Shown here: piece by piece, positions 39,838 through 64,000 of the stretch | Layout of the letters: the number at the start of each line of letters is the position of its first letter | Position numbering within the stretch: position 1 is the stretch's first letter | The notes under the pieces: generated by a model | Databases searched by the model: none | Told to the model about the DNA's origin: nothing | Seen by the model: the letters and a program-made list of their open reading frames with translations, nothing else | Origin: an uncultured bacterium | Lineage (GTDB): Bacteria; Zixibacteria; MSB-5A5; GN15; FEB-12 | Assembly (NCBI GenBank): GCA_965372795.1 | Contig: CBDVDR010000001.1 | Span: 283,800 to 347,799 of the forward strand | Direction: 5' to 3' | Length of the DNA: 64,000 nucleotides | Position numbers and translations under genes: made by a program

Positions 39838-40770
39838 ATGTCGCGACGTTTTCATCTTTTAATTATCTCAGTATTTTTCAGTTTGCTATTATTTTCAGCT
39901 GTCTCTGCTCAGGAAAACAATGCCATTAGTATCGAACGGTATCATATGTCAGATCTTGGATGTGAAGTTGAACTATCAATTAATTTGGACAGCATCGTTT
40001 TAGAAGCAGAGTTTGGTGGATTTGATTTATTAATCGGTTATAATGCTTCGATAATTGCTCCTCTTTCAATAACATCAGGTGAATCCCTGGAATTATGCCA
40101 GTGGGAATATTTCACTTACAAATTAGAGTTTGATTCAGATTGTGTTGGCTTCAACTGCCCTACCGGTTTGATTCGAATTATAGCACAAAGCGCTCTTGAT
40201 TTGCAAAACCCTTCTAATCTTTGTGGATTAAATTCATCTGGCGAATTAGCAATATTGAAGTTTGTCATAACGTATAATCGCGATATTTTATGCCAATTTA
40301 TTCCAGTTGGTTTTTATTGGAAAGAATGTGGTAATAATAGTTTTAGAAACTTATCAGATAATATTGCCAATATTTCAAATCAGGTATTTAATGTTAACGA
40401 TCAAAATATCACTTCTGATAATACATTCCCCAGTTGGACAGGTGCATCGTCTGAATGTGTGACAAGTGAAATTAATCGAAACATAAATTTTTATAATGGC
40501 GGGATAGATTTAGCCTGTTATGATGATGTATCAGAACCACCAGGTGACATCAATCGGAATAATATACCTTTTGAAATCGGAGATTATGTTTTATTTGAGA
40601 CATACTTTATTTATGGTCTTTCTGTTTTTTCTATAAACATTGAAAGTCAAATAGCACAAACCGATGTCAATTCTGATGGACTATCCCTTTCAGTGGCTGA
40701 TCTCACTTTTTTGAAAAGAGTAATTGAAGGTGATATAAAACCAATTGGTAATTACTGCAATTGGAAATAA
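39838..40770 (+). CDS. Secreted protein with cohesin-like and dockerin-like domains
   Basis: AAGGAG SD, signal peptide, GGFDLLIGY cohesin-like strand; GDINRN...EIGD and TDVNSDG.LSVADL paired EF-hand-like loops. Confidence 0.65.
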   Translation: MSRRFHLLIISVFFSLLLFSAVSAQENNAISIERYHMSDLGCEVELSINLDSIVLEAEFGGFDLLIGYNASIIAPLSITSGESLELCQWEYFTYKLEFDSDCVGFNCPTGLIRIIAQSALDLQNPSNLCGLNSSGELAILKFVITYNRDILCQFIPVGFYWKECGNNSFRNLSDNIANISNQVFNVNDQNITSDNTFPSWTGASSECVTSEINRNINFYNGGIDLACYDDVSEPPGDINRNNIPFEIGDYVLFETYFIYGLSVFSINIESQIAQTDVNSDGLSLSVADLTFLKRVIEGDIKPIGNYCNWK

Positions 40771-47674: not shown

Positions 47675-48160
47675 TTAATTAAGATCCTTTCTCATTGAAT
47701 AGCCGAATTCTTCTGGAGTACGACCTTCACCTTCTTTAAATATCTTATAATCACGATTTTTATACATTTTAATAGCTCTATGGTTATCTCCATCGACACC
47801 CAATGTGATAACTTTTTTCCCAAGTTGTTTTGCTTGTTCTTCAATAAAATCCATCATCTTCCAGCCAATGCCCTGTTTTTGATGATCGCTTCTGACTTGT
47901 AAATTATGAACATGGCAGATATTTTTACCATCAGCCAATTCCGGATCATTGTCAGCTTTATTTAGTATTAATTGAATCATCGCTACGACTTTATCTTCCT
48001 CATAAGCGATAGAGATTATACGGTTATCACCGGCTTCACTAAGATCATGCTTAAGTTCTTTAATTATAGCTTTCAATTCATCATCTGTTTTTTTATATGT
48101 TTCAGCAATTGCAACCAATAGATCTAAATCACTGTTATTGTTTAACTCTACAATTTTCAT
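47675..48160 (-). CDS. GNAT family N-acetyltransferase (alternative start 48193)
   Basis: V..DHQKQGIG motif A and N.RAI.MY motif B. Confidence 0.85.
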   Translation of the reverse strand: MKIVELNNNSDLDLLVAIAETYKKTDDELKAIIKELKHDLSEAGDNRIISIAYEEDKVVAMIQLILNKADNDPELADGKNICHVHNLQVRSDHQKQGIGWKMMDFIEEQAKQLGKKVITLGVDGDNHRAIKMYKNRDYKIFKEGEGRTPEEFGYSMRKDLN

Positions 48161-48199
48161 TTTATCCCCAATTAATAAATTCAACTTATTCATTTATAT

Positions 48200-48229
48200 A
48201 CAGGCGAAAGAGAATACAAAACGTTTGCA
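48200..48229 (-). promoter_or_regulatory. Putative ECF promoter, copy 1 (GNAT)
   Basis: TGCAAACG-N15-CGCCTGT. Confidence 0.75.
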
Positions 48230-48288: not shown

Positions 48289-51200
48289 TTACTTCAACAG
48301 TAACATCTTCTTGCTATGGCTGTAATCACCAGCTTGTATCTTGTAGAAATAAACTCCGCTGGAAACTTGCTTACCATTGGAATTAACACCATCCCATTCG
48401 ATAGAATGATAACCGGCTTGCATCGAACCATCAATAAGCGTGGTTACTTTTTGTCCGATGACATTATAAACCGCAAGCTTCACCTCGCCCGGATTCGGCA
48501 AGGCAAACTCGATCTGTGTCACCGGGTTAAACGGGTTTGGATAGTTCTGGTTAAGGGAGTAAACATCCGGTAATGTTGGCTGTTTCATTGCTTCACCAAT
48601 TGATGGAATAACACTAATGTGGTTCATATCTGCAACAACTGCTGAAATTATTTCATACTCACCATTTAGTTGTACCAGATTAGTTGAACCGGCTTTGATA
48701 GTTTCTGAACCTTGAAGGTCAAGCAGACCGATCTGTGTTTGACCATCCTGTTCATGATAAAACATTTCGATATTTTTATCTGCAAGTTTTACCGGAGCTT
48801 CAGTTGATGAACCGATTAGTTCAATCTGGATTCCTTTCAAATCAAAATCAGAATCAATCGAAAGGGTTGTCATATTATTACCATAATAACTGTTGATTGA
48901 AACATCACCAGATTGTTTGTAAGCTTTAGGAATGCAAAGATCAGAACAATATGGAAGTGAGGGACCATCTCTAAACATGAAATCAATAAGGAAAGTTAAA
49001 TCAGAGATATCAAGGATACAATCCAAATTGAGATCAGCTTCTTCAAAGCATACCGGTTCCGGACCTGCTCTAAACATCCAATCAATGAAATAAGTCAGAT
49101 CAGAAATATCTGGCAGAAGTGGGTTGTCATTATCTCCATTGACATCTCCTCTTGGACCAACACAACAGCTACCATCTCCGATTATAATACTACCTGGGTT
49201 AAATTCTGGTATTACTACGCTATCAGGATAAACAAACTGATAACTATAATCAACCGCGTTATAGTTTACAGTAACTGTATCAATTACAACAAGCTCATCA
49301 TAAGCTTCTGGAGCGATGGTGAAGTACATTTTTGCTGTTGTAGTACTACAAGGGATTATTGGTTCTTCGGTAGACCTTTCACAAAAATATGGGAAAGCAT
49401 CATCTACCTTGCGAATAATTACTGTCGAATCATCAACATTTATAATTTCCAATCCACTAATTCCGGAATTTGCAATTACTGAATCAAGGATAACATTTTC
49501 ATATTGAGATGTATAATATCTTAATGGAATTGTAAACTCTTTAAGAGAATCATTAGTTGAGATTACAACTGGAATTACAACTTTCTGATCTGGTCTGGTA
49601 TATTCATCACCTACATCAACACCAGCCTCCACAAAAAACGATACATAAATATATTTTGATTCACTTATTCCATCAAAATCATATATTTCAATAACTCCTG
49701 AGTAAATCCCAGCAGTATAATTTGAATCTACAATTGAAATTACCAGAGTATCAGGATTTGATCCTGTTAGTTTATCTACTTGTATCCAATCAAAGCCGGA
49801 TTTTATTTTGGATCGCCAATTAAGAATTCCATCTTCACACGAACTATTGATATATACAACTTGAGAATCAATTGGATAGATAGAATTCTCTGTTGTATTA
49901 AATAACAGATATTTGTCACTTAACTCCACAGGTCTTTCTTGGGTGATATTGATAGTATAATCACTTGTATCAGAACCATTCAAGTTCTCCGCAATTATAT
50001 TAAAAACATACTCTCCTTCTTTAATATAATTAAAACAAAGAGAATCATTAGCCCAGGAATAATTGATTGGATCAATTAAAATACCATCAATAGTTAGAGA
50101 AATATTAACAGTTTCTTGATTGATTATCTGTAATTCAATACAAGTGTCATTACTTACTTCAAAACCACATGTTGCAAAATAATATTCTTTTTCTTGACGA
50201 TACACATACGGTTTTGAAAGGCAGAATTTGCATTGTAAACTCATCCAAAAGGTACTAGTTGGTGCACCATCTCCCTCTCTTATAAATATTGTATAATCTC
50301 CTGACTCAGGTAGCACATAATCTATGAAGTTTACCTGACGACCACCATAATCTCCCCAAACATCAGTGTAATCATCATAATCATATATAAACAATGTATC
50401 TGAGGGACCATACAACTCAAGCATACAACGAAATTTTGTATTTGTTCCCGCTGGTTCTACTCGTAATGTAATAATATCACTTGAATCACCATAAAAAGTA
50501 TATCCATCAATCGCTCCAAAAGGTGTTATAGCATCTTCATAATAAAAATCATATACAACCTCCATCGCATTATTTATAATATGCTCACGACACTGTAAAC
50601 TCATCCAATAAGCACTAGTCGGAGTACCGTCACCTTCTCTTATAAATATTGTATAATCTCCTGTCTCAGGTAACACATAATCAATGAAGTTCACCTGACG
50701 CCCTCCGTAATTTCCCCATACATCGGTGTAATCATCATAATCATATATCAAATATGTATTTGAGGGACCATACAACTCAAGCATACAACGAAATTTTGTA
50801 TTTGTCCCTGCTGGCTCTACTTGAAGAATAATTCTTTCACCTGCTACTCCACTAAAAGTGTAAGCATCTATTTCACCTGATATTGCTACAGTATCATTCA
50901 CCAAGGTATCATAAGATATCGGTAATGCATTATCCATCAAATGCTCACGACATTGTAAACTCAACCAGTAAGCACTAGTCGGAGTACCATCACCTTCTCT
51001 TATAAATATTGTATAAGTTCCTGTCTCAGGCAGCTCATAGTCTATGAAGTTCACTTGACGACCTCCATAACTTCCCCAAACATCAGTGTAATTATCATAA
51101 TCAGAAATAAATAATGTATCTGTTGGTCCATACAACTCAAGCAAACAACGAAATGTTGTATTTGTTCCTGCTGGCTCAACACGGAGAAGAATTCTTTCAC

Positions 51201-51822
51201 CTGCAACTCCACTAAAGGTGTAAGCATCTATTTCATCATATAAAGCTACAGTATCATTCACCAATGTATCATAAGATATGGGTATTGCATTATCGATCAA
51301 ATGTTCACGACACTGCAAGCTTAACAAGTAAGTAAATATTTCATTCGCCTGAGTTTCAGAAATAAATAAATTATATGTTCCTGTCATTTCTAATTCTAAA
51401 TCAACAAATCTTACCTGCCCACCATTGCTTGCCGTAGCCGTTACAAAAAGAGAATAATCTGGATTATAAAGTTCTAGTGTTACTTCAGCAGAGCCACTTG
51501 GATCAACACGAAGTATGATCCTATCACCTGCTGTACCACTAAATGTAATTCTGTCAATATCACCAAAATTATCAATAGAATCCGTTATTAGAGTATCATA
51601 AGCTATTGTAATTGTTTGTGCGTTTCCTGACATTGGGATAGCCAGAACAGCGATTAAAACAAGCATAAATGCACCTGTCTTAATCCTAAATTGATCAAAT
51701 GTTTGCATAACTTCTCCCCTGGTTATATTATTTTTTGATTTGTGTGCTCTGGTATTAAGCCTAAATAATGGCATAAAAGACCTAACAGTCAAGCTATTAA
51801 AGGTTTTTTTGAACATAAACAT
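48289..51822 (-). CDS. Secreted multidomain protein: PPC-like repeats, BACON-like, cohesin-like, dockerin, FlgD/T9SS-type CTD (second start at 51708)
   Basis: Signal peptide after M39; ~121-aa repeats; CCVGPRGDVN...DISDLTY dockerin; NQNYPNPFNP...KKMLLLK. Confidence 0.82.
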   Translation of the reverse strand: MFMFKKTFNSLTVRSFMPLFRLNTRAHKSKNNITRGEVMQTFDQFRIKTGAFMLVLIAVLAIPMSGNAQTITIAYDTLITDSIDNFGDIDRITFSGTAGDRIILRVDPSGSAEVTLELYNPDYSLFVTATASNGGQVRFVDLELEMTGTYNLFISETQANEIFTYLLSLQCREHLIDNAIPISYDTLVNDTVALYDEIDAYTFSGVAGERILLRVEPAGTNTTFRCLLELYGPTDTLFISDYDNYTDVWGSYGGRQVNFIDYELPETGTYTIFIREGDGTPTSAYWLSLQCREHLMDNALPISYDTLVNDTVAISGEIDAYTFSGVAGERIILQVEPAGTNTKFRCMLELYGPSNTYLIYDYDDYTDVWGNYGGRQVNFIDYVLPETGDYTIFIREGDGTPTSAYWMSLQCREHIINNAMEVVYDFYYEDAITPFGAIDGYTFYGDSSDIITLRVEPAGTNTKFRCMLELYGPSDTLFIYDYDDYTDVWGDYGGRQVNFIDYVLPESGDYTIFIREGDGAPTSTFWMSLQCKFCLSKPYVYRQEKEYYFATCGFEVSNDTCIELQIINQETVNISLTIDGILIDPINYSWANDSLCFNYIKEGEYVFNIIAENLNGSDTSDYTINITQERPVELSDKYLLFNTTENSIYPIDSQVVYINSSCEDGILNWRSKIKSGFDWIQVDKLTGSNPDTLVISIVDSNYTAGIYSGVIEIYDFDGISESKYIYVSFFVEAGVDVGDEYTRPDQKVVIPVVISTNDSLKEFTIPLRYYTSQYENVILDSVIANSGISGLEIINVDDSTVIIRKVDDAFPYFCERSTEEPIIPCSTTTAKMYFTIAPEAYDELVVIDTVTVNYNAVDYSYQFVYPDSVVIPEFNPGSIIIGDGSCCVGPRGDVNGDNDNPLLPDISDLTYFIDWMFRAGPEPVCFEEADLNLDCILDISDLTFLIDFMFRDGPSLPYCSDLCIPKAYKQSGDVSINSYYGNNMTTLSIDSDFDLKGIQIELIGSSTEAPVKLADKNIEMFYHEQDGQTQIGLLDLQGSETIKAGSTNLVQLNGEYEIISAVVADMNHISVIPSIGEAMKQPTLPDVYSLNQNYPNPFNPVTQIEFALPNPGEVKLAVYNVIGQKVTTLIDGSMQAGYHSIEWDGVNSNGKQVSSGVYFYKIQAGDYSHSKKMLLLK
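50230..51320 (-). repeat. Three near-identical 363-bp intragenic repeats
   Basis: LQCREH/LQCK anchors recur at a 363-bp period with high nucleotide similarity. Confidence 0.85.
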
Positions 51823-51857: not shown

Positions 51858-51887
51858 ACTGGCGAAGGAGTACCCAAAACGTTTGTC
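51858..51887 (-). promoter_or_regulatory. Putative ECF promoter, copy 2
   Basis: GACAAACG-N15-CGCCAGT. Confidence 0.75.
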
Positions 51888-51955: not shown

Positions 51956-54900
51956 TTACTTCAACAGCAACATCTTCTTGCTATGGCTGTAATCACCGGC
52001 ATGAATCTTATAGAAATAAACTCCGCTGGAAACTTGATTACCATTGGAATTAACACCATCCCATTCGATAGAATGATAACCGGCTTGCATCGAACCATCA
52101 ATAAGCGTGGTTACTTTTTGTCCGATGACATTATAAACCACAAGTTTCACCTCGCCCGGATTCGGCAAGGCAAACTCTATCTGTGTAACAGGATTAAACG
52201 GGTTCGGATAATTCTGGTTGAGCGAATATACATCCGGTAATGTTGGTTGTTTTAAGGCTTCACCAATTGATGGAATAACCGACTGATGATTTATGTCTGC
52301 AACAACTGCCGAGATAATTTCATACTCACCATTAAGTTGTACCAGATTGGTTGAACCGGCTTTGATAGTTTCTGATCCTTGAAGGTCAAGCAGACCGATC
52401 CGGGTTTGACCATCCTGTTCATGATAAAACATTTCGATATTTTTATCTGCAAGTTTTACCGGAGCTTCAGTTGATGAACCGATTAGTTCAATCTGGATTC
52501 CTTTCAAATCAAAATCAGAATCAATCGAAAGGGTTGTCATATTATTACCATAATAACTGTTGATTGTAACATCACCCGACTGCTTGTATGCTTTAAGCAC
52601 ACATTGCTCTATGCATGCCGGAGGAGGAGGACCCGCTCTAAACATGTAATCAATTATATAAGTTAAGTCGGAAATATCAATCACACAATCCAAAGTAAGG
52701 TCTGCTTCTTCAATACAGACAATTTCGGGACCTTGTTTGAACATATAATCTACAAGATAGGTTAAGTCTAATATGTTAATAATATCTTCAGAATCATTAT
52801 CAATATTTCCCCTCATCCCAACACAACATGCTTCACTTTCAATATAAATTCGTCCCAAATCAAAGGCTGGAACAACAGTTGTATAAATATCATTATTGCG
52901 ATAAGTGAATTGATAGCTGTAATCAGCTTTGAAACTTAAAGTCGTTGTATCAATTATGATAACTTCAGACACAGCATCCGGTGCAAATGTAAAGTACGCC
53001 GTTGCAACCTGATATGAATTTGAATCAGGAAGGATCGGTTCTTCGGTATCGCGATAGCAGATGAACGAAGTATCATCAATTATAATAATCGTACCTCCGA
53101 TATCCTGCATTGCTATAACAGAATCGAGGCTGACTTTATCAGGTTGGAAAGTGCTATACACTAATGGAATCGTAAATCTTGCCAGCGAGTCAATTGGGAC
53201 AATAACAATTGGAACTTCAATAGATGCCCCCGGCTTGGTGTATTGATCAACAATATCGGTACCATCGTTGATGAAGAAAGAAACTTGAACATAGGTCTGT
53301 GAGTTATCACCGGAAAGGTCATCAAAAACCAGAACTGCTGTATAAACACCCGGATTCAATATCCCCCGATCAACTGAAACCGTGATGTTATCAGGGGTAG
53401 TTCCTGAAATTTTATCAATGCTTAGCCAGGTTGAATTGTTGTTGTTGGAATAAAAAATATCGGTTAATTCCCAATCCAGTTCTGCTGCACTGCTTGTGAT
53501 TTGAATCTGTTGTGAAACGGGAGGGATAATCGCATCATCGGTTGTGGTGAATGTTAAGTAATCGGTATCAAAGTTCAGTTTTGGAACAATGTTACATCCA
53601 ACCCCCAGAGCACCTATCAAAACTCCACAACTATTATTAGCTTGTGCACAAATAGAAGAACCTTCAATATGAAAGTCACCTAAAGCAGTATCACAAAAAA
53701 GAGGGTCAAGAGAAAAGTTTCCATTCAGATTTTCAAAACCAGCGATACAATCAACCCAATCACCATTGGTGTTACCAAATATATCCGTACAATCAATTGT
53801 GATTGTTGAATTTTCATCTCCACAATTGATTGAACCATTGTCATTATCAGAACTAGTGTTAAAAGCAAGGATTGAATTGCTTATCTGTACTGTAGAATTT
53901 GTAAATACAGTAATAGCACCTCCATATGGAGCATCATTATTCACAATTGTACAGTTTAATAAAGACAGGTTAGATGTAACAGCAGTTATTGCACCCCCAT
54001 TATTTGCTGATATATTATTTTTAAAATAACATGAATTTAGCAAGGAAGATGCATTATTATCGAGAAGGCCTCCGCCACTGCTAATTGAAGCTTCATTTGA
54101 ATCAAAAGTACAATTTAATATCTGTGGAGAACTATTATTCCAACTAAATATTCCTCCACCTGCACCGGCGACATTACTGAAAAAATTGCAATTATCAATT
54201 ACAGGATTCGATAATGTTCGTATCGCAATACCACCTCCACGACCATTTATTAGGGTTGAATTAAAACTAAAATAACAATCGTAAATATAAGGTGAGGAGT
54301 TATCACAAAAGATTCCACCTCCATCAGTGCTACCACTTTTACAGTTAGTAATAGAAATGTTTCTAATCATAGGTGAAGAATTATTAGTACAAGATACTCC
54401 ACCTCCAGATTGTGAATATCCATTCACTATGTTTAAACCTATAAGCTGAGAAGTAGAATCTTCTCCATTTGAAAATATAAATCCTCGATGCATATCAAGC
54501 GAATCTGCCTGGCAGTCAATGTCTACTATTATTCCATCTACAGCTTTTACGACAATCGCTTTCCCAAGAAAATCTATATCACGATTACCATCGCCAGTAT
54601 ATGTACCTTCATGCACTAACACCGTATCACTAGCTGTAGCCATATCAATACCATGCTGGATAGTTGCGAACGGAGCAGCTTCGCTGCCGTCACCGCTTAT
54701 ATCATTACCGATTGTTGAGACATGGTATGTTGATCTATCTATAGCCCCGCATCCGACATCATAGGCACCTATCAGTGTATCACCATTTGCAGCCGGCGCA
54801 CAAGGAGAGTTGGCATCAAGTGAATAATTATCTATGGAAGTATCACAAAATAATGGTTTTGCTGTAAAGTTTCCACTGGTAAACTCTAAATCTGCAATAC

Positions 54901-57805
54901 AGCCAACCCAATTACCACCTGAATTACCATACACATCATTCTGGTAAAGATATGGGTTACTTGGAGGATCAGTTACCAAATCAGGAGCGATTATATAACA
55001 TTCAACTGATTTACCAAAATTATAGGCAATGATACAATCATACAAAGTAGGACTTGAACTTGAGCAAAACAGACCAGCGCCATCAACTCGTGCCCTATTT
55101 TTGACAATAGTACATCTTGATAAAGTTGGTTCTGCACCTGTGTTTAAGCCAATTCCACCACCATAGTAATCAGAATAGTTTTCTGTAATAAGACAATTTC
55201 TTAAACTGGCTCCGGAAGTGCCATGACTAAAAAAGATTGCTCCTCCACTCCAGTTCGCATCATTGTCTTTAAAAATACAATTAGAAATCCATGGTGAACC
55301 ATTTGAAATCAAAATTGCTCCACCTATGTTTGCATAGTTTTGTGAAAACCAGCAGTTAATTATTCTTGGGCTGGAATTTTCAATCCAAATACCACCACCA
55401 AAAGGATTCCCTCCTGGAGTATAACCACCAACAATATTAAAGCCGATTATCTTAGTTGATGAAGTTTCATTTGTATGAATATAAAATCCCCGGTGTGGAT
55501 TCGAGGCAGATCCTTCAATCTTTATCATGGTATTTTCTGGACCGTTTTCTGACATGACGATAAGTCTCTTGCCCAATAAATCTATATCACGATTGCCATC
55601 ACCGATATAAATTCCATCATGTACTAAAACCGTATCACCATCCGATGCTAAATCAATAGCATGTTGAATAGTTTCAAGCGGATCAGCTTCACTGCCGTCA
55701 CCGGTTTCTAAGCCATAGATTGACACATGCCAAACAGGACCTTCATAAATAGAAAAGTCTGTTTTGAGAACCATTAAAGAAGAACCATCAGCCAAATAAA
55801 CCAAGCTGTCTGATACGAAAACTCTACGTGCATGACCCGGAGTATCATAACTACCAACTAATTCAGGATTGGTCGGATCAGAAATACTAACAATTTGAAG
55901 ACCTTTATCTCCATTAGTTAAATATGCATGATCATTTGATATAAAAAAATGGGTTGTAAAACCCCCTGATGTATAATAACTACCAACATATGTAGGATTT
56001 ACAGGATCTGATACATTGATTATTCGAAGTCCACTATAACCATCAGCCACGTACAATAAAGTATCTAATACTACAATATCGAATGCATTATTCGGAGTAT
56101 CATAATTGCTAACAAATATAGGATTGGTCGGTTCAGAGACATTAATAATTTGAACTCCATTTGTTCCATCAGCTACATATGCTAAAGTATCAACTACAAA
56201 TACATTATATGCATATTTTATAATATCAGAACTACCTACATATACTGGTGTAGTAGGATCGGAAACATTTAGAATTACAAGACCATTCAACCCTGAGCCT
56301 ACATAAGCAAGTGTATCTGAAACAAAAACACCCATTGCATCACCTGAGTACTCTCCAACAAATTCTGGGTTGGTAGGATCAGATACATTAATTATCTTAA
56401 GTCCCCCTGATCCATCTGCAATATAAGCGAGACTATCTGATAAAAATACAACCTGTGCATAACGAGTATCATAATTGCCAACCATATAAGGACTGTTAAT
56501 ATCTGATATATTTACAATACTAAGTCCATTATTCCAATTGGCTACATAAGCTAAAGTATCTGAAACATAAATGCCAAGTGCCAGACTTGGAGTATCATAA
56601 TTGCCAATATAATCAGGGTTGACTGGTTCTGACACATTGAATAATTGAAAACCACCTGTACCAGCTACATAAACCAGTGTATCTGACACAAAAACATCAA
56701 GAGTTGCTCCCGGTGCATATAAACTGCTCACAAATTCAGGATTGGTGGGTTCAGATACATTGATTATTTTAACACCACTACTTCCATATGCAACATACGC
56801 CAATGTATCTGATACAAATACATCATAAGACCTACCTGTTGTATTATAACTACCAACAAATTCAGGATTGATAGGGTCTGAAACATTGATTATTTGAAGA
56901 CCACTATCGTAAGCTGCCACATAAGCTAATGTATCTGAAACAAAAACACTTCTTGCTGAACCAGGAATATCATAACTTCCAAGTAGGTATGGATTGATTG
57001 GGTCTGAAACGTTGATTATTTGAAGATCGCCACTATGACTATTTGCAAAATACACTAGTGTATCTAAGACAAAAACACTAAAAACTCTTTCAGCATAATT
57101 GCCAACAAATTCAGGATTGAAAGGATCTGAGATATCAATAATTTGAAGACCACCATAATCATCAGCGATAAACGCCAATGAATCTATTACAAAAACACTA
57201 TATGCCCAATCTGGAGTATTATAACTGCCTATAGTAATAGGATTAACAGGATCTAGAACATCAATGATTATAAGCCCTTCACTTCCATCCGCTAAATATA
57301 CAAAATCTCCTGATTTATCAATTCCCTCTCCAGTACCCTGTAAATACATATAACTTACACTGTCTGGATTTGTAGGATCTGAGACATCAAGGATCACTAA
57401 CCCATTAACATAAGCACAATAGGCATAATCGCCATCCACAACAACATCTTTAACATCAGACCACAAGCAACTGCTGACATATTCAACATTGAAGTCACTC
57501 TCGGCAAAGACATCTTTGGTAAAGTCGTATTTACTAAATGAGTCATCTCTTAATAGAAAATCCCGGGGGTCTTCCCCCATCATTGGAAATCTTTCCTGCG
57601 CCGGGCAGAAAGTGTTCAGCACTAAGATTAACATTATTGCTAAAACTGAAATAGACAGGGCTTTGCCTATTAAGGTTCTGTGGAATACCATGTTCCCTCC
57701 AAATAAAGTTAATAATTTTGTATGGTGTGCTCTAATCGTCCGTATCCAATATAGCATTTTTGACCTATATGTCAAGAATCCTGATTGTTTATCACATTTC
57801 ATCAT
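51956..57805 (-). CDS. Giant secreted protein: LVIVD-repeat propellers, two parallel beta-helix domains, BACON-like, cohesin-like, dockerin, FlgD/T9SS-type CTD (second start at 57691)
   Basis: About 13-14 V.V.DTLAYVA...GL.IINVSDP.NP repeats; two GDGSE..P..TIQH.ID domains with GGAI repeats; CCVGMRGNID dockerin; CTD. Confidence 0.85.
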   Translation of the reverse strand: MMKCDKQSGFLTYRSKMLYWIRTIRAHHTKLLTLFGGNMVFHRTLIGKALSISVLAIMLILVLNTFCPAQERFPMMGEDPRDFLLRDDSFSKYDFTKDVFAESDFNVEYVSSCLWSDVKDVVVDGDYAYCAYVNGLVILDVSDPTNPDSVSYMYLQGTGEGIDKSGDFVYLADGSEGLIIIDVLDPVNPITIGSYNTPDWAYSVFVIDSLAFIADDYGGLQIIDISDPFNPEFVGNYAERVFSVFVLDTLVYFANSHSGDLQIINVSDPINPYLLGSYDIPGSARSVFVSDTLAYVAAYDSGLQIINVSDPINPEFVGSYNTTGRSYDVFVSDTLAYVAYGSSGVKIINVSEPTNPEFVSSLYAPGATLDVFVSDTLVYVAGTGGFQLFNVSEPVNPDYIGNYDTPSLALGIYVSDTLAYVANWNNGLSIVNISDINSPYMVGNYDTRYAQVVFLSDSLAYIADGSGGLKIINVSDPTNPEFVGEYSGDAMGVFVSDTLAYVGSGLNGLVILNVSDPTTPVYVGSSDIIKYAYNVFVVDTLAYVADGTNGVQIINVSEPTNPIFVSNYDTPNNAFDIVVLDTLLYVADGYSGLRIINVSDPVNPTYVGSYYTSGGFTTHFFISNDHAYLTNGDKGLQIVSISDPTNPELVGSYDTPGHARRVFVSDSLVYLADGSSLMVLKTDFSIYEGPVWHVSIYGLETGDGSEADPLETIQHAIDLASDGDTVLVHDGIYIGDGNRDIDLLGKRLIVMSENGPENTMIKIEGSASNPHRGFYIHTNETSSTKIIGFNIVGGYTPGGNPFGGGIWIENSSPRIINCWFSQNYANIGGAILISNGSPWISNCIFKDNDANWSGGAIFFSHGTSGASLRNCLITENYSDYYGGGIGLNTGAEPTLSRCTIVKNRARVDGAGLFCSSSSPTLYDCIIAYNFGKSVECYIIAPDLVTDPPSNPYLYQNDVYGNSGGNWVGCIADLEFTSGNFTAKPLFCDTSIDNYSLDANSPCAPAANGDTLIGAYDVGCGAIDRSTYHVSTIGNDISGDGSEAAPFATIQHGIDMATASDTVLVHEGTYTGDGNRDIDFLGKAIVVKAVDGIIVDIDCQADSLDMHRGFIFSNGEDSTSQLIGLNIVNGYSQSGGGVSCTNNSSPMIRNISITNCKSGSTDGGGIFCDNSSPYIYDCYFSFNSTLINGRGGGIAIRTLSNPVIDNCNFFSNVAGAGGGIFSWNNSSPQILNCTFDSNEASISSGGGLLDNNASSLLNSCYFKNNISANNGGAITAVTSNLSLLNCTIVNNDAPYGGAITVFTNSTVQISNSILAFNTSSDNDNGSINCGDENSTITIDCTDIFGNTNGDWVDCIAGFENLNGNFSLDPLFCDTALGDFHIEGSSICAQANNSCGVLIGALGVGCNIVPKLNFDTDYLTFTTTDDAIIPPVSQQIQITSSAAELDWELTDIFYSNNNNSTWLSIDKISGTTPDNITVSVDRGILNPGVYTAVLVFDDLSGDNSQTYVQVSFFINDGTDIVDQYTKPGASIEVPIVIVPIDSLARFTIPLVYSTFQPDKVSLDSVIAMQDIGGTIIIIDDTSFICYRDTEEPILPDSNSYQVATAYFTFAPDAVSEVIIIDTTTLSFKADYSYQFTYRNNDIYTTVVPAFDLGRIYIESEACCVGMRGNIDNDSEDIINILDLTYLVDYMFKQGPEIVCIEEADLTLDCVIDISDLTYIIDYMFRAGPPPPACIEQCVLKAYKQSGDVTINSYYGNNMTTLSIDSDFDLKGIQIELIGSSTEAPVKLADKNIEMFYHEQDGQTRIGLLDLQGSETIKAGSTNLVQLNGEYEIISAVVADINHQSVIPSIGEALKQPTLPDVYSLNQNYPNPFNPVTQIEFALPNPGEVKLVVYNVIGQKVTTLIDGSMQAGYHSIEWDGVNSNGNQVSSGVYFYKIHAGDYSHSKKMLLLK

Positions 57806-57839: not shown

Positions 57840-57869
57840 ACTGGCGAATGAGTACCCAAAACGTTTGCA
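57840..57869 (-). promoter_or_regulatory. Putative ECF promoter, copy 3
   Basis: TGCAAACG-N15-CGCCAGT. Confidence 0.75.
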
Positions 57870-57926
57870 AAAAAAAAGACGACAACCACTTTTGGTCATC
57901 GCCTTTGAGCACATCCCCCCCTCGTC

Positions 57927-58400
57927 TCAAAATCCGATTGTTATACCGGCTTTTATATTGATGCACTCCAGTAGATCAACATTTTTCTGTCTATTCAGCT
58001 TATTTGTAAAATCAGGAGCAATATCAAAATACAGACCCAAAGAAGGTGTTTCTTCCTTTTTTGTTAAAACAAAATCCGTCATAGTCGTTTCGGTTGATTC
58101 TTTTGAAAGTTCATCCCAAGACTCATCAGATTTTTCTTTATTTGAAGCATCTTCAACCTGTAACTCTTCCCCCTTGTCATCATCCCCTGCCAATTTTATA
58201 AAACCTATAATTATCCCTACACCAACCAAACCTATAGTGGTGTATAACATGAAGTCGGTCGCTTTATTTAATTTATTATCATAGTCAACATATTTATCGA
58301 TATCAGCAGCAAAGACAGATGATCCGGGAAGGATCACCTGTATTGCTAATGCTATAACGACGATTAAGGCAGTTGTTATATTTCTTGGTAACTTAAACAT
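57927..58400 (-). CDS. Small exported protein with an internal hydrophobic helix and a C-terminal beta-signal
   Basis: Signal peptide, KYVD, hydrophobic segment, acidic linker; ends IKAGITIGF. Confidence 0.7.
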   Translation of the reverse strand: MFKLPRNITTALIVVIALAIQVILPGSSVFAADIDKYVDYDNKLNKATDFMLYTTIGLVGVGIIIGFIKLAGDDDKGEELQVEDASNKEKSDESWDELSKESTETTMTDFVLTKKEETPSLGLYFDIAPDFTNKLNRQKNVDLLECINIKAGITIGF

Positions 58401-58412
58401 CGTTATATCCCC

Positions 58413-58892
58413 CTAAAATCCGAAAGTTACGCCGGCTTTTACGGTTAGATCCGAAAAGTCCAGAGTGTTGCTTTTAATTTGTGAAGATTCGCTCTGATCA
58501 ACATTCAGGAATAATGTCAAGCTTGGTTTGGAACCTTTGTCAAAAATTCCATCAGCAATAAATTTTGCTCCACTGCGACCTTCATCGTAACCCAAAAACT
58601 CATCATCTTCCTCAGCTTCTGTATCTTTGCCTGTTTCCTTTTGAGGGGTGACTTTGATCTGATCATCATCTTTTTTTGATTTCTGCATAAGTTTAAGTGT
58701 AACAGCACCAACCAATAGTGCTCCTACTGCAATCACGAGTCCGCTCGAAAATGGTGACGAATTCATTCCCGGAAGTTCACCTGAACGATCTACATATTTT
58801 GCCTGTGATGATGCCGGAACAAAAAACAGCTGAAATGCAAATACTAAGATCGCAATAGCTGTAACGGTTGATTTTGTTTTTTCTGTTTTCAT
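58413..58892 (-). CDS. Paralog of 57927-58400 (true start probably 58892)
   Basis: AAGGAG SD, signal peptide, KYVD, hydrophobic segment; ends VKAGVTFGF. Confidence 0.7.
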   Translation of the reverse strand: MKTEKTKSTVTAIAILVFAFQLFFVPASSQAKYVDRSGELPGMNSSPFSSGLVIAVGALLVGAVTLKLMQKSKKDDDQIKVTPQKETGKDTEAEEDDEFLGYDEGRSGAKFIADGIFDKGSKPSLTLFLNVDQSESSQIKSNTLDFSDLTVKAGVTFGF

Positions 58893-58942: not shown

Positions 58943-58972
58943 ACAGGCGGAGCAAATCAAAAAACGTTTGCA
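58943..58972 (-). promoter_or_regulatory. Putative ECF promoter, copy 4
   Basis: TGCAAACG-N15-CGCCTGT. Confidence 0.75.
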
Positions 58973-58996
58973 AAAAAATTACCAAAAGACTATACT
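58968..58996 (+). promoter_or_regulatory. Sigma70 promoter giving a probable leaderless ECF mRNA
   Basis: TTGCAA-N17-TATACT, then 6 nt, then ATG at 59003; no SD. Confidence 0.6.
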
Positions 58997-59002
58997 TTCT
59001 TC

Positions 59003-59563
59003 ATGCTTCAGCAATTCAATGAATTTCAAACTGTTAGCGATTATTTATCGGGCAACAGGCAGGCTAATCAATTAATTGAAAAATATATTCAATCCGCTTT
59101 TAACAGCTGGAAAAGGAAATTTGGATTTGAGACCGATGATATTTTATCAGATATCAGGTATAAAATATTTCTCTCATTAAAAGAGAATAAATTCAGTTAT
59201 CAGTCAAAGCTCGAAACCTACATTAATAGGATAGTTAATCATACCTGTATCGATTATGTACGATTTAATAAGCGATTCACAGCTACAGAATTTGAAGAGC
59301 TCAATTTGACTTCAAAAGAGTTAAATCCGGAAGAACAGCTTGAAAAACGCCAATACGCAAAATTAGCTTTCCGTGTCCTGCGGCAACTCCCTAAAGAGTG
59401 TATCATGCTATGGCGTATGCACTTAAAAAAAGAGCTGAACTGCCGTGAAATTGGCGACATTTTAGGCAAAAAAGAAGGTAATATCAGACGTAGATTATGG
59501 GCTTGCCGGCAAGCCGCTAAAGAGATCAGAGAAAAATTATTAAAAAAGGACAAACTATTTTAA
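59003..59563 (+). CDS. ECF-family RNA polymerase sigma factor
   Basis: 186 aa; region 2 (DDIL...LETYINRIVNHTCIDYVR) and region 4 HTH (LP...REIGDILG....NIRRRL). Confidence 0.92.
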   Translation: MLQQFNEFQTVSDYLSGNRQANQLIEKYIQSAFNSWKRKFGFETDDILSDIRYKIFLSLKENKFSYQSKLETYINRIVNHTCIDYVRFNKRFTATEFEELNLTSKELNPEEQLEKRQYAKLAFRVLRQLPKECIMLWRMHLKKELNCREIGDILGKKEGNIRRRLWACRQAAKEIREKLLKKDKLF

Positions 59564-59578
59564 TGTTAGATCGCCAAT
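59549..59578 (+). promoter_or_regulatory. Putative ECF promoter, copy 5 (overlaps the sigma stop codon; faces anti-sigma and CHAT)
   Basis: GACAAACT-N15-CGCCAAT, same spacing as the other four copies. Confidence 0.6.
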
Positions 59579-59610
59579 CTATCATGAAAAGATAGATAAC
59601 GAAAGATAAG

Positions 59611-60429
59611 TTGATGAATATGAACGATTTAATACCAAAATATCTGAATGGGCGAATGTCCGAAGAAGAAAAGCTTCAATTTGAAAAAGAAGTAGAAGCT
59701 AATTCCGAACTAAAAAGAGAACTTGCCGAATTAAGCCGATTATTTTTGGGAATCGAAATTACTGAAAAACTTGAACAAAACCATGTCGACTCTATGCAGC
59801 TTGTAATTTATGCAGAAAATCCTGGTGAACTGGATGATACAACGCAATTAGAAATATCAGACCATTTAAAAGAATGTCAGGATTGCACCGAAGAGTATAA
59901 AATCTGTTTGGAGGTTACTCAAAACAGCATCGTTAAAAATAAAGTGAGAAAAATATCTGAGAAAAATATAATTCAAAAAATTATCGGTTTCTTGCTCCCT
60001 CCGCAAATGCATCTTCGCCCTGCTGTTGCCTATTTTGCTTTAATCCTGCTCTCTGTGACCTCATATTATTCTTATGAAAGATTCACAATTCCCACTCCGA
60101 CAGTAGATGTTTATACTTTGTCGACAACCACTTTACGCGGCGAGACAAATAAAAATATAATTGAAATCACTATTGATGAAAAATATATCAATCTCGAATT
60201 TTCCATGCCTATTGTGAATAACCAAATGTACGATTTAACAATTTCAGATAATTTAAGTAGTCCCATTTTAACATTTCATAATCAAATTTATAATAATCAA
60301 TTCAAGATATTAGTATCAACTGACCAAATTAGTGAGGGTGATTATAAGATCTCAGTAAAAGATTCCAAGGCTGATTCAGCTAATGATGAAATATTAGAAG
60401 TATCATTTACAATAAAAATTATTGATTAA
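59611..60429 (+). CDS. Membrane anti-sigma factor with zinc-finger (ZAS, HxxxCxxC) domain
   Basis: YL.G.MS.EE...FE anti-sigma-like N-terminus, HLKECQDC, one TM helix, extracytoplasmic TLRG plus beta-rich domain. Confidence 0.8.
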   Translation: MMNMNDLIPKYLNGRMSEEEKLQFEKEVEANSELKRELAELSRLFLGIEITEKLEQNHVDSMQLVIYAENPGELDDTTQLEISDHLKECQDCTEEYKICLEVTQNSIVKNKVRKISEKNIIQKIIGFLLPPQMHLRPAVAYFALILLSVTSYYSYERFTIPTPTVDVYTLSTTTLRGETNKNIIEITIDEKYINLEFSMPIVNNQMYDLTISDNLSSPILTFHNQIYNNQFKILVSTDQISEGDYKISVKDSKADSANDEILEVSFTIKIID

Positions 60430-60456
60430 ATAATCCAGTCTCTTTAACTTCAATAA

Positions 60457-63201
60457 ATGCGTTATCGCTTCCATTTATTATTTATATTAGCAGCACTTAT
60501 TATTTGTTGTTCAAAAAATGAAGACAAATTCGCTGAATTTTCATCATTGTATATTAAGCATCAGGATTCATTATTAACAGCCAAAATCAATACTGCCCCT
60601 GATAAAGTCCGCCGGTATATTATTCATTTACTCAAAGAATATCCTTCAAACAAATACAATCAATCACCTAATTATTCTAAAATTGAATACGAAATAGCTT
60701 GGTTTATAGACAAGTATATAAAACAGACCAATCTGGATGAACTACAAAAGAGGTTTGATCTATACAAAAATTGGAGTCGAAAAGAATTATCAAATAAAAT
60801 ATCGCTTGATTCAACTTTTAGTCACTTGAATAACAACGCCAATACTAAATCTTTTCCAATCAGTTTGAAAAAACTTTTACCTGAGTATGAGAATTTAAAC
60901 GACTCTTTTAAAATTGCTTCTATTTTCTATCAAATTGGAGATTTTTATTTTAATAAGAAAATAAATGATTCAGCAATTACTTATTTTGATAAATCAGTTG
61001 AAGTTGCAAAACATTTTGATAATTTAAATATGATAGGAGATGCCTGGTTTAAAAAATCTATAATCTATCATTACAGATTAGAAAACCGCATTCAAGCTGA
61101 TATTCACTTATACAAATCTGAAGATATATTCAATAAACTAAACCAACGAGATCGTCTGATTTATATCTGGAACATTCAAGGTCATTCTCTTTATAAACAG
61201 TCATTTTTTGATAAGTCTTCTGCAAAGCATAAAATGGTTGCCGATACAGCAAAAATGAAAAACATAAAGAACCTTGAAGCTCAAGCATATAACTATATAG
61301 CGGAAGCATATATTGATTTAGAAAATTTTGATAGTGCTCTAATTTATTGCGAATACTCTATAAAAATTAGAGAAACCATCAACAGCAGTAACAAATCTAA
61401 AAATTCAAATATTGATCTGGCAAATTCTTTTTGTACAAAGGCTCTTATTAAGCAACGACAAAAATCATTCAAGCATGCTAAAGAACTTCTTGATGAAGCA
61501 TTTGAGATTTTCATTAGTTATAAAAACAGCGATGGCATACGATTATGTAATGAACGAAAAGCATGGCTTGACGTTGACATGGGTAATTTTATAGATGCTG
61601 AACAGAAATTCATGAAAAATCTTAGCCTGGGAACTAAGAATGAAACCATCCTGCAGGCTCTTTACGGTTTAGGTGTATGTTATTACAGATTAAATGATAA
61701 CTCAAAAGCATTAGAGTACTTATTGACTTTCGATCAAGTAATAGATGGCATACTTAATCAAATTGATTTTAAGGAATTTAAAAAAGGTATGATTGGTGAC
61801 AAGTCAGACGCTTATGAGTTGATTTCAATACTATATAAAGAAAAATTCGAAACCGACGGCCAAATTTCAAATTTGGATTCTGCATTAAAATATATAGAAA
61901 AAAACAAAGCTCGATCTCTTTTTGAAATGATGGATGTTAAAATTGAAACTACTCCTGAAATTGATTCCCTTGTTTTATTAAAATCAAAATTACTCGTCAA
62001 TCTGCTTAATCCGGAAATTGATCAATCATTTGTCAAAGACTCAATCAATACTATCCGGAGTTCATTATTATTATTGCAATTAAATAATCAAAACAAAATT
62101 AAAAATATCAACGTCACCAAACACAATGATAATATCCGTGATATTGTTACCAATCAAATGCTAAAAGATGATGAGATGATTATCGAATATGTTTTATCAC
62201 CATATGGTTCTTTCATGTTCTTCATTACTAATAATTTGTTTACATATTCTCCTATTACTCTGCCTTTTGATTCAATAAAAGCTTTAACAACACAATACTA
62301 CGATTTGATCTCATCGCCAGAGTCTAAAATTTCAAATAATTTCACGGAACTGGGGAAAACATTATATGACATTTTTATTCCCCACCAGATAATCGAAAAG
62401 GAAAATATCAAGCATCTCATTATAATTCCAACAGATTTATTATACTCACTACCGGTAGAAACATTTATAAACCAATACAATCAATTCCTTATTGAAAATA
62501 ACAGAATTTCCTATGCAAATTCGATACATATATTGGAATCAGCAAATAAAAGAAAATATGCATCGATGACAAAAAAACAAATTGTAAGTTTTGGTGATCC
62601 AATCATTTCAAATGGACTGTCATTTGAACCAATTCCATATACAGCGAAAGAAATAAAATCTATAAATTCAAAATTTAAATCTGCCCAATCAGACATTTTC
62701 TTAAGCAGTGAAGCTACTGAATCTGCATTCAAATCTTATTCGTTTGAAAATGTTCAATATCTTCATATTGCTTCTCACGGATATTGCAATTTTTCAGATC
62801 CGGATCAATCAGGTATTTTATTTTCTCCTTCAACTGAAAATGCGCCGAGCGATATGCTTCATATTGATGAATTCAGAAATCTAAAGATACCAGTGAAACT
62901 TACTTTCTTATCTGCCTGCCAAACCGGCACAGGGAAAGTCCTTCCAGGTGAAGGCGTGATGGGATTGGCTAATCCTTTTATTTTAGCCGGAAGTAAATCG
63001 GTTATTGTAACCCTATGGAAAATAGATGATCGGGCATCATCGAAAATGGTCCCAATGTTTTATGATTATTTACTAAAAGGTTTGCCTATCTCAGAAGCTC
63101 TTTCGTCTGCAAAGAATAAAATGATAAACTCTGATATATCTCTGTATAAACATCCCTTTTATTGGGCTCCATTTATTTATATCGGTTCAAATGACATTTA
63201 A
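60457..63201 (+). CDS. TPR-CHAT (caspase HetF-associated) protease, probable lipoprotein
   Basis: Short signal with Cys (LIICCSK), TPR-like helices, E..KARSL, LIIIP, LHIASHG (His), FLSACQTG (Cys), LWKIDD and HPFYWAPF. Confidence 0.92.
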   Translation: MRYRFHLLFILAALIICCSKNEDKFAEFSSLYIKHQDSLLTAKINTAPDKVRRYIIHLLKEYPSNKYNQSPNYSKIEYEIAWFIDKYIKQTNLDELQKRFDLYKNWSRKELSNKISLDSTFSHLNNNANTKSFPISLKKLLPEYENLNDSFKIASIFYQIGDFYFNKKINDSAITYFDKSVEVAKHFDNLNMIGDAWFKKSIIYHYRLENRIQADIHLYKSEDIFNKLNQRDRLIYIWNIQGHSLYKQSFFDKSSAKHKMVADTAKMKNIKNLEAQAYNYIAEAYIDLENFDSALIYCEYSIKIRETINSSNKSKNSNIDLANSFCTKALIKQRQKSFKHAKELLDEAFEIFISYKNSDGIRLCNERKAWLDVDMGNFIDAEQKFMKNLSLGTKNETILQALYGLGVCYYRLNDNSKALEYLLTFDQVIDGILNQIDFKEFKKGMIGDKSDAYELISILYKEKFETDGQISNLDSALKYIEKNKARSLFEMMDVKIETTPEIDSLVLLKSKLLVNLLNPEIDQSFVKDSINTIRSSLLLLQLNNQNKIKNINVTKHNDNIRDIVTNQMLKDDEMIIEYVLSPYGSFMFFITNNLFTYSPITLPFDSIKALTTQYYDLISSPESKISNNFTELGKTLYDIFIPHQIIEKENIKHLIIIPTDLLYSLPVETFINQYNQFLIENNRISYANSIHILESANKRKYASMTKKQIVSFGDPIISNGLSFEPIPYTAKEIKSINSKFKSAQSDIFLSSEATESAFKSYSFENVQYLHIASHGYCNFSDPDQSGILFSPSTENAPSDMLHIDEFRNLKIPVKLTFLSACQTGTGKVLPGEGVMGLANPFILAGSKSVIVTLWKIDDRASSKMVPMFYDYLLKGLPISEALSSAKNKMINSDISLYKHPFYWAPFIYIGSNDI

Positions 63202-63257: not shown

Positions 63258-64000
63258 TTAACAACCGGACGGTGGAGGTCCGGAATTAAATAAATAATCT
63301 ACTATATAAGTCAGATCAGATATTCCAATCGTTCCATCAGTATTTATATCTGCTTCAATTTCACAAGAAGCAGCAGGTCCCATGTTAAAGAGATAATCGA
63401 CAATATAAGTTAAATCCGAGATTCCAATTGTTCCATCATGATTAACATCACCACGAGCGACACAACAGGTTGCATCTGCGCCGTCACAATCCTGATCAAC
63501 GCCATCATCAAGAATTTCTACCGCTCCCGGATGGATACTCGCATTACCATCATTACAATCGGTATTGTCAGAAACATATCCCGGGGGGCAACCGCCTGAT
63601 GATGCTATCATATTTACCGGACTGCCATAACCATCAGCATCTGAATCGGCATAACAAGTGACAGCATCAGCCCCATCACAATCTTCATCAACTCCATTAT
63701 CAGGTATTTCAACCGCTCCCGGATGGACACTGATATTACCATCATTACAATCAGTATTGTCAGAAACATATCCCGGAGGGCAACCGCCTGATGATACTAT
63801 CATATTTACCGGACTGCCGTAACTATCAGCATCTGAATCGGCATAACAGGTAACCGCATCAGCCCCATCACAATCTTCATCTACTCCATTATCAGGAATT
63901 TCTACCGCTCCCGGATGGACACTGACATTACCATCATCACAATCTCCGGCACATTCTGTCCATCCATCACCATCATTATCTATTTCAGAAGCGGGAATTA
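63258..64000 (-). CDS. 3' part of a secreted protein with MopE-like putative metal-binding repeats and a C-terminal dockerin (5' end outside window)
   Basis: Frame is open to the window end; 64-aa (192-bp) DCNDGN..IHPGAVEIPDNGVDEDCDG repeats; CCVARGDVNHDG..GISDLTY dockerin. Confidence 0.82.
   Translation of the reverse strand, partial: IPASEIDNDGDGWTECAGDCDDGNVSVHPGAVEIPDNGVDEDCDGADAVTCYADSDADSYGSPVNMIVSSGGCPPGYVSDNTDCNDGNISVHPGAVEIPDNGVDEDCDGADAVTCYADSDADGYGSPVNMIASSGGCPPGYVSDNTDCNDGNASIHPGAVEILDDGVDQDCDGADATCCVARGDVNHDGTIGISDLTYIVDYLFNMGPAASCEIEADINTDGTIGISDLTYIVDYLFNSGPPPSGC

Follow-up and report, generated by a model that had tools for sequence, protein, structure and literature searches.

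A split sigma factor, anti-sigma factor and TPR-CHAT locus with a predicted surface-protein regulon in an uncultured Zixibacteria genome

We analysed a 64,000-nucleotide stretch of DNA from an uncultured bacterium of the Zixibacteria (GenBank assembly GCA_965372795.1, contig CBDVDR010000001.1, positions 283,800 to 347,799; hereafter the window), in which three adjacent genes encode a sigma factor of the extracytoplasmic function (ECF) type, a zinc-binding anti-sigma (ZAS) factor and a tetratricopeptide repeat (TPR) protein with a CHAT protease domain. We put at about even chances the reading that these genes form a self-contained envelope signalling locus in which the CHAT protein is the site-1 protease of the anti-sigma factor. 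The sigma factor would be made from a housekeeping-type promoter, the zinc-finger anti-sigma factor would tether it to the membrane, and the exported TPR-CHAT lipoprotein would be the dedicated partner of the anti-sigma beta-sandwich ectodomain. As a signal-gated protease that receives its cue via the TPR solenoid, the CHAT protein would cut the ectodomain close to the membrane, most probably within an exposed loop that carries R176. The M50 site-2 protease of the genome (227.6 bits) could complete the cleavage and free the sigma factor, which would then transcribe genes behind the motif CAAAC-N16-CGCC: the anti-sigma and CHAT genes themselves (feedback), a pair of small genes termed c4, two giant surface proteins and a GNAT acetyltransferase.

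The three genes form a conserved unit

The genes run in one direction throughout, with intergenic gaps of 47 nucleotides between sigma and anti-sigma and 27 nucleotides between anti-sigma and CHAT. From the list of open reading frames (ORFs) and the family models, the ECF sigma gene lies at 59003–59563 of the plus strand (186 amino acids, TIGR02937), the ZAS-type anti-sigma gene at 59611–60429 (plus strand, 272 amino acids, PF13490) and the TPR-CHAT gene at 60457–63201 (plus strand, 914 amino acids, PF12770). A first-pass annotation, made by a model from the letters alone, had described three co-directional genes for an ECF sigma, a single-pass anti-sigma and a TPR-CHAT protein; its coordinates proved exact and its families matched. 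The gene neighbourhoods show the triad to be a conserved unit. Searching the CHAT protein against 285 genomes of the same phylum, we found full-length relatives at 26–32% identity, and sigma, anti-sigma and CHAT were colinear in 17 of the 20 loci that we fetched. As to the exceptions, locus L053 is truncated by a contig end and still holds a C-terminal anti-sigma fragment, L038 has another gene upstream while the anti-sigma orthologue of that genome lies on a separate short contig, and L051 is a weaker paralogue. The closest public loci, found with an alignment of six C-terminal sequences, are labelled Candidatus Zixiibacteriota and, for some, Ignavibacteriales.

The sigma factor matched the sigma70-ECF model TIGR02937 over residues 21–172 with 55.4 bits (cut-off 42.9), and the Pfam families Sigma70_r2 and Sigma70_r4 below their cut-offs only. 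Two features of ECF membership were found: the region 2/region 4 layout, as given by the family model, and an anti-sigma gene directly downstream. The anti-sigma factor matched PF13490 (zf-HC2) with 30.7 bits (cut-off 22.2). Its zinc ligands, H85-x3-C89-x2-C92 plus H58, are invariant among 17 orthologues and 99% conserved in 140 family sequences; this H-x3-C-x2-C motif, together with the fourth ligand upstream of it, places the protein in ZAS class I. An AlphaFold2 (AF2) model (predicted local distance difference test, pLDDT, 83.3) is helical up to residue 159, with a cytoplasmic domain of about residues 1–110 and a single long hydrophobic helix at 137–159, followed by an ectodomain that folds as an eight-strand beta-sandwich (165–271). 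Judged by these features, the protein is a predicted single-pass membrane protein with its zinc finger in the cytoplasm and its sandwich outside. A Foldseek-type search with the ectodomain returned only generic, cupredoxin-like beta-sandwiches (E ~3e-5, template modelling (TM) score ≤0.47), which implies no function, and a single-sequence search of the PDB with the anti-sigma factor gave noise only.

The CHAT protein matched PF12770 with 213.5 bits (E 5.7e-63), together with several TPR families. Its AF2 model (pLDDT 86.1, predicted TM score 0.81) consists of a TPR solenoid (about residues 26–568) and an alpha/beta CHAT domain (573–914). The catalytic dyad lies in the motifs IASHG, with H774 (62776–62778), and LSAC, with C821 (62917–62919), and all 18 aligned CHAT orthologues keep H774, G775 and C821. 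A hydrophobic signal that closes in a cysteine (Cys17/18) forms the N-terminus, MRYRFHLLFILAALIICCS, and a cysteine ends the N-terminal hydrophobic stretch in 16 of the 18 orthologues. Both the intact His (ASHG)/Cys (SAC) dyad and the export with a lipoprotein-like signal that the first-pass annotation had read thus have conserved counterparts: by its signal and lipobox cysteine the CHAT protein is a predicted exported, lipoprotein-like protein, and by its CHAT domain and dyad it belongs to the CHAT-domain protease family, with proteolytic activity predicted. Among Foldseek matches of the model, the craspase subunit Csx29 had the best E value (1.5e-16) and DdvA (8rot_A, E 1.1e-13) the top full-length TM score (0.48/0.49 over 925 columns); separase matched at ~1e-11. 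Sequence searches of the PDB were less telling. The CHAT protein had no match in a single-sequence search, and the best 60 matches of a profile search were mainly TPR proteins, with 7zoq (E 5e-5) as the sole CHAT match among them and no DdvA match detected.

Anti-sigma and CHAT genes pair in different arrangements

We ran a profile of the anti-sigma factor over 1.84 billion protein representatives and obtained 12,480 matches at E≤1e-3, 1,229 at E≤1e-10 and 77 at E≤1e-30; many of the more than 1,000 matches (representatives at 50% identity) may cover the zinc-finger part only. The best 150 family representatives are 116–346 amino acids long, mostly with full-length coverage, and none is fused to a CHAT domain, in line with the split architecture that had been proposed for the locus. 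Within the phylum, a family member occurs in 75 of 285 genomes (E≤1e-12). We sampled 40 loci of this phylum (L136–L175) whose family members are more remote (E 1e-19 to 1e-40) and found a CHAT gene within about 7 kb in 36 of them, and within 6 kb in 35. The pairs are mostly direct neighbours but convergent (tail-to-tail), and the four loci without a CHAT gene are short contigs or contig ends. Because the pairing survives changed gene order and orientation, it probably reflects a functional, likely physical link between the two proteins and not mere co-transcription. The pairing is common in the phylum. One genome family among the 40 loci held a second type, about 2–5 kb off and on the opposite strand.

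The same genome (G000) carries a second, paralogous module outside the window (contig C4). It comprises a sigma-like ORF with a partial ECF match (G000:C4:10058-10591), an anti-sigma gene (G000:C4:10567-11280) and a TPR-CHAT gene (G000:C4:11308-14559), with a divergent gene for a type IX-sorted protein beside them (G000:C4:7415-9727). The whole module (G000:C4:7415-14559) is without the CAAAC-N16-CGCC motif described below and probably has a promoter specificity of its own. The first-pass annotation mentions neither this module nor the c4 genes and the promoter before the anti-sigma and CHAT genes.

Related arrangements also appeared outside the phylum. Three ORFs of about 1200 amino acids (L115:1956-5531, L130:1896-5522 and L132:1932-5522), labelled Pyrinomonadaceae, Acidobacteriota and Blastocatellia, combine an anti-sigma-like N-terminus and a TPR-CHAT part in one chain. 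The N-termini matched NF052375 below its cut-off (E 1e-7 to 4e-3), and each fusion is preceded by an ECF-like ORF that matched TIGR02937, again below cut-off (E ~3e-7 to 2e-4). Excerpts of PMC11506125 state that DdvA-like fused forms are confined to Myxococcota and one Comamonas; if these three fusions are real, such forms extend further. Exported TPR-CHAT proteins of about 940–980 amino acids were seen in loci labelled Flavobacteriaceae (L071, L074, L080, L086, L090, L092, L094, L114 and L120) and Myxococcus or Pyxidicoccus (L091, L099, L104 and L124), in each case behind an ORF of about 183–250 amino acids that matched nothing in Pfam; these ORFs may represent another anti-sigma-like partner family. 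Pfam searches with 105 upstream ORFs from 80 wider loci likewise left most of the Flavobacteriaceae and Myxococcus ORFs (~183–253 amino acids) unmatched.

An ECF-type promoter motif marks surface-protein genes

The motif CAAAC-N16-CGCC occurs six times in the window against 0.22 copies expected, and none of 100 shuffled sequences reached six. With the window region and the 20 loci taken together (235,365 bases), CAAAC-N16-CG[CT]C occurs 36 times against about 3.6 expected by our own arithmetic. The motif has an AAC-type −35 and a CG-type −10 element, and we infer that it is the one this ECF sigma factor reads. Five window copies precede genes. On the minus strand, they lie before a GNAT gene (48203–48227, 30.5 bits, rank 2), a 1177-amino-acid protein (51861–51885, 29.1 bits, rank 4), a 1949-amino-acid protein (57843–57867, 32.4 bits, rank 1) and, facing away from the sigma gene, the c4 genes (58946–58970, 29.8 bits, rank 3). 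The fifth, on the plus strand (59551–59575, 16.5 bits, rank 9), lies 36 nucleotides before the anti-sigma start and would serve the anti-sigma and CHAT genes. The sixth copy (40240–40264) is antisense within an ORF and probably a chance occurrence. Each minus-strand unit closes with a strong terminator, and the next promoter follows directly.

These scores come from a promoter matrix built from 26 non-window sites, with five copies dropped that lie inside ORFs or carry CGTC. In a scan of the 3.35-Mb genome, four window sites took ranks 1–4 (29.1–32.4 bits), the next site scored 21.9 bits, and no further strong site was found elsewhere in the genome. GCAAAC-N16-CGCC by itself is not enriched genome-wide (9 copies, similar to other spacings); only the extended matrix separates the sites of the locus. 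The best match outside the window, G000:C54:352-392 (21.9 bits), lies on a small contig and has CTCC instead of CGCC at −10; it may be a further regulon member, or chance.

Across the orthologous loci, the equivalent of the divergent c4-side promoter is present in 11 and the anti-sigma/CHAT promoter in 8, the window counted in both. Copies in other loci precede c4, a conserved lipoprotein (cluster c5) and type IX-sorted proteins whose domains differ from locus to locus. The first-pass annotation had expected an output of surface proteins and not defence genes, and the motif indeed stands before two giant type IX-sorted proteins: apart from surface-protein genes it marks just the c4, GNAT and anti-sigma/CHAT genes, and no defence island of the CRISPR-Cas or CBASS kind.

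The sigma gene itself appears to be served by a different promoter. A housekeeping-like sequence, AAAnGTTTGC-N19-TAnATT (58962–58996, plus strand), read by eye, precedes it and is kept before the sigma gene in 15 orthologous loci, also by eye, where it ends 6–11 nucleotides before the start codon. The sigma mRNA is probably nearly leaderless, because the window copy stops 6 nucleotides before the sigma ATG. We had considered AAAnGTTTGC-N19-TAnATT as the sigma-dependent promoter and rejected it, as its extra copies in the locus are oriented against their genes and are without a −10 element; CAAAC-N16-CGCC was adopted because the complementary strand yields a consistent motif. The sigma gene ends in the codons K-D-K-L-F-stop (59549–59563), and these double as the −35 element (GACAAAC) of the anti-sigma/CHAT promoter. 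Among the sigma orthologues, a ...DK(L/Q)... C-terminus goes with the presence of this internal promoter, and the C-terminus is different where the promoter is missing.

A candidate cut site and the case for cleavage

We aligned the window anti-sigma factor with 139 family representatives (n = 140) and found that R176 (codon 60136–60138) is 96% conserved, whereas the residues around it reach at most 43%. In the AF2 model R176 sits in a variable loop (171–182) between strands 1 and 2, about 17 residues beyond the membrane helix. Metacaspases cleave after arginine. Excerpts of PMC11506125 report the same of separase. R176 may be the P1 residue and is a candidate cut site.

We also predicted the complex of the CHAT protein (residues 35–914) with the ectodomain (157–272), using alignments of our own. 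The pair scored 0.49 (0.48–0.50 between runs), and the best of three controls scored 0.00; the partner had a pLDDT of 77 or more, and at least 93% of contacts agreed between runs. Of 157 solved complexes 116 reached the mark that this score passes, as did 2 of 215 mismatched pairs, and at scores of 0.60 or less just 18 of those solved complexes passed, along with both mismatched pairs; with our own alignments, these counts calibrate the score only roughly. The prediction therefore gives weak support. The first-pass annotation had proposed that a periplasmic CHAT protein senses a ligand through its TPRs and cuts the anti-sigma ectodomain. The complex prediction fits this weakly, and the pairing across arrangements, the loop arginine and the complex prediction together make cleavage by the CHAT protein the most likely account of their relationship; that the TPRs sense a ligand is conjecture.

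Several observations weigh against CHAT as the site-1 protease. R176 could serve structure or binding instead of being a P1 residue. For DdvA, the fused relative, excerpts of PMC11506125 report that dyad mutants had no phenotype and that autoproteolysis was not seen, and describe the proposal as unproven. The sigma-dependent promoter stands before the anti-sigma and CHAT genes in eight loci, so that CHAT could be a mere output; this internal promoter scores only 16.5 bits and is missing from about half of the orthologous loci. A search for GldM, as a marker of the type IX machinery, matched nowhere, controls included, and is uninformative.

It is possible, if unlikely, that the CHAT protein binds the ectodomain and does not cut it. 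The ectodomain would then be a securin-like pseudosubstrate, with products of the regulon, for instance the c4 or the giant surface proteins, as the real substrates, or the CHAT protein an RseB-like shield against another site-1 protease. TPRs bind short peptides, and the periplasmic ELPGM stretch of the c4 proteins resembles such peptides; CHAT and surface-protein genes share a sigma-dependent promoter in kind, and type IX-sorted proteins lie beside both modules of the genome. Separase held by its pseudosubstrate securin (excerpts of PMC11506125) would be a precedent. However, an invariant dyad and a near-invariant arginine in the partner are most simply read as an enzyme and its cut site. 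The giant proteins, which vary in domain content among loci, would make poor conserved substrates, and c4 is present in only 10 of 21 sources.

We consider it very improbable that CHAT is a mere target of the sigma factor, for instance a periplasmic housekeeping or maturation protease, with no physical or regulatory tie to the anti-sigma factor and a neighbourhood that reflects co-regulation alone. Third genes of ECF operons are frequently outputs, and the promoter found before the anti-sigma and CHAT genes in eight loci would suit such a role. Yet the pairing holds where the two genes are convergent and can share no transcript (36 of 40 loci), and anti-sigma, TPR and CHAT parts are fused in DdvA and in the three Acidobacteriota-labelled ORFs. 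Highly improbable is a cytoplasmic input in which the zinc site senses thiol oxidation, as in RsrA-type ZAS factors, with the extracytoplasmic parts uninvolved: the 99% conserved ligands H58, H85, C89 and C92 and a weak match to the RsrA model TIGR03988 (E 4e-4, far below cut-off) would fit, but many zinc-binding anti-sigma factors are not redox sensors, and the conserved membrane span, the ectodomain, R176 and the obligatory CHAT neighbour would be left unexplained.

With CHAT as the site-1 protease, the locus might go further and sense the state of the cell surface. An arginine-specific CHAT protein would cut after R176, with its TPRs gated by a product of the regulon such as the ELPGM tail of c4 or unprocessed type IX cargo. 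We regard this extension as rather improbable. If true, the cell would gauge and tune its load of giant surface proteins, and the locus would stand for a class of ECF signalling that is widespread and as yet undescribed, run by extracytoplasmic caspase-fold proteases; widespread, because the anti-sigma profile matched more than 1,000 representatives at 50% identity and a CHAT gene lies beside members in 36 of 40 loci.

Relation to known systems

The nearest known system is DdvS/DdvA of Myxococcus xanthus, an ECF sigma factor and a transmembrane zinc-finger anti-sigma factor with a periplasmic TPR-CHAT part (PMC11506125, PMC6061681). In both systems an ECF sigma factor goes with a cytoplasmic zinc-finger domain, one pass through the membrane and a TPR-CHAT part outside the cytoplasm that has a His/Cys dyad, and the proposed mechanism is shared as well: excerpts of PMC11506125 propose the same site-1 role for the fused CHAT domain of DdvA, ahead of RseP. 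DdvA differs in being one fused chain, whereas here separate ORFs lie 27 nucleotides apart and the anti-sigma factor has a beta-sandwich ectodomain of its own. It also differs in controlling a CRISPR-Cas/CBASS defence island, whereas the predicted regulon here consists of surface proteins. On our reading, the window system is a split form of DdvA/DdvS with predicted control of surface proteins, without the fusion and the defence regulon.

In the craspase of type III-E CRISPR systems, Cas7-11 acts with the TPR-CHAT protein Csx29, and a sigma factor is set free when Csx29 cleaves Csx30 (PMC10028731). Only the TPR-CHAT part and the logic of a protease that frees a sigma factor, proposed here, are alike; craspase is cytoplasmic and RNA-guided, whereas the window CHAT protein has an export signal, a membrane-bound inhibitor as its presumed partner and a predicted non-defence output. 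No Cas genes were seen among the ORFs of the 40–64-kb part of the window, although no search aimed at Cas was made. The classical cases of regulated intramembrane proteolysis of anti-sigma factors, RseA/DegS/RseP and RsiW/PrsW/RasP, resemble the proposed pathway in their single-pass anti-sigma factor, an extracytoplasmic first cut and an M50 site-2 protease that follows. They differ in that their first protease is a serine or metalloprotease, whereas the candidate here is a cysteine protease of the caspase fold, with TPRs as its proposed sensor, encoded beside its presumed substrate.

A full-text literature search for CHAT with anti-sigma returned DdvA and CRISPR papers only, and we found the split form described in none of them. 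The main text of the ECF re-classification makes no mention of CHAT or caspase, and its supplements might list such a neighbourhood. The split module is a conserved, unpublished variant, and DdvA is the only studied anti-sigma factor with an extracytoplasmic TPR-CHAT part. According to excerpts of PMC11506125, the proposed self-cleavage of DdvA was not testable, as its signal is not known and a single chain is both enzyme and substrate. In the split form the enzyme and its presumed substrate are separate soluble domains, R176 is a predicted cut site and the promoter is defined, so the question of CHAT as a site-1 protease becomes directly testable. The locus is also a first point of entry to the regulation of giant type IX-sorted surface proteins in an uncultured phylum.

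Regulon genes and neighbours

Behind the divergent promoter lie the paralogues c4a (58413–58892, minus strand, 159 amino acids, start picked by its ribosome-binding site) and c4b (57927–58400, minus strand, 157 amino acids), followed by a terminator at 57906–57875. They belong to no known family and share one layout: after a signal peptide and the short conserved stretch W/Y-x-D-x-S-x-E-L-P-G-M come a single membrane helix and an acidic linker, and the C-terminus is again conserved, ...K-A-G-V/I-T/S-F/L-G-F (...KAGVTFGF in c4a). Cluster c4 was found in the 10 of 21 sources mentioned above, and c4a has no Pfam or NCBIfam match. As the first genes behind this promoter, the c4 proteins may be part of the signalling itself. 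In five other loci (L039:915-1766, L045:2376-3305 and three more), a lipoprotein of about 300 amino acids without a Pfam family, cluster c5, lies between c4 and the giant protein behind its own motif copy; it is absent from the window.

The GNAT acetyltransferase is a predicted regulon member (47675–48193, minus strand, 172 amino acids, PF00583 60.6 bits). Downstream of it, a gene for an exported M1-family-like peptidase (45456–47573, minus strand, 705 amino acids, PF01433 33.9 bits) has no motif of its own and may be co-transcribed with GNAT, so that its place in the regulon is uncertain. At the other side of the locus, an ORF on the minus strand at 63258–63998, open at the window end and convergent to CHAT, encodes MopE-type metal-binding repeats and a dockerin; no motif was seen for it in the window.

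The larger giant gene (51956–57805, minus strand, terminator 51937–51908) encodes a predicted secreted or surface protein of 1949 amino acids with LVIVD repeats (PF08309, 273 bits), a beta-helix (PF13229) and a type IX secretion C-terminal sorting domain (PF18962, 29 bits). The smaller one (48289–51822, minus strand, terminator 48270–48241) encodes a surface protein of 1177 amino acids with PF18962 (29.9 bits) and PF04151. The final ~200 residues of the two proteins are almost identical, the promoters have 2 mismatches in 25 bases and the terminators, too, are near-identical, and these shared parts suggest that the 3′ portion of the giant genes was duplicated recently together with its flanking signals.

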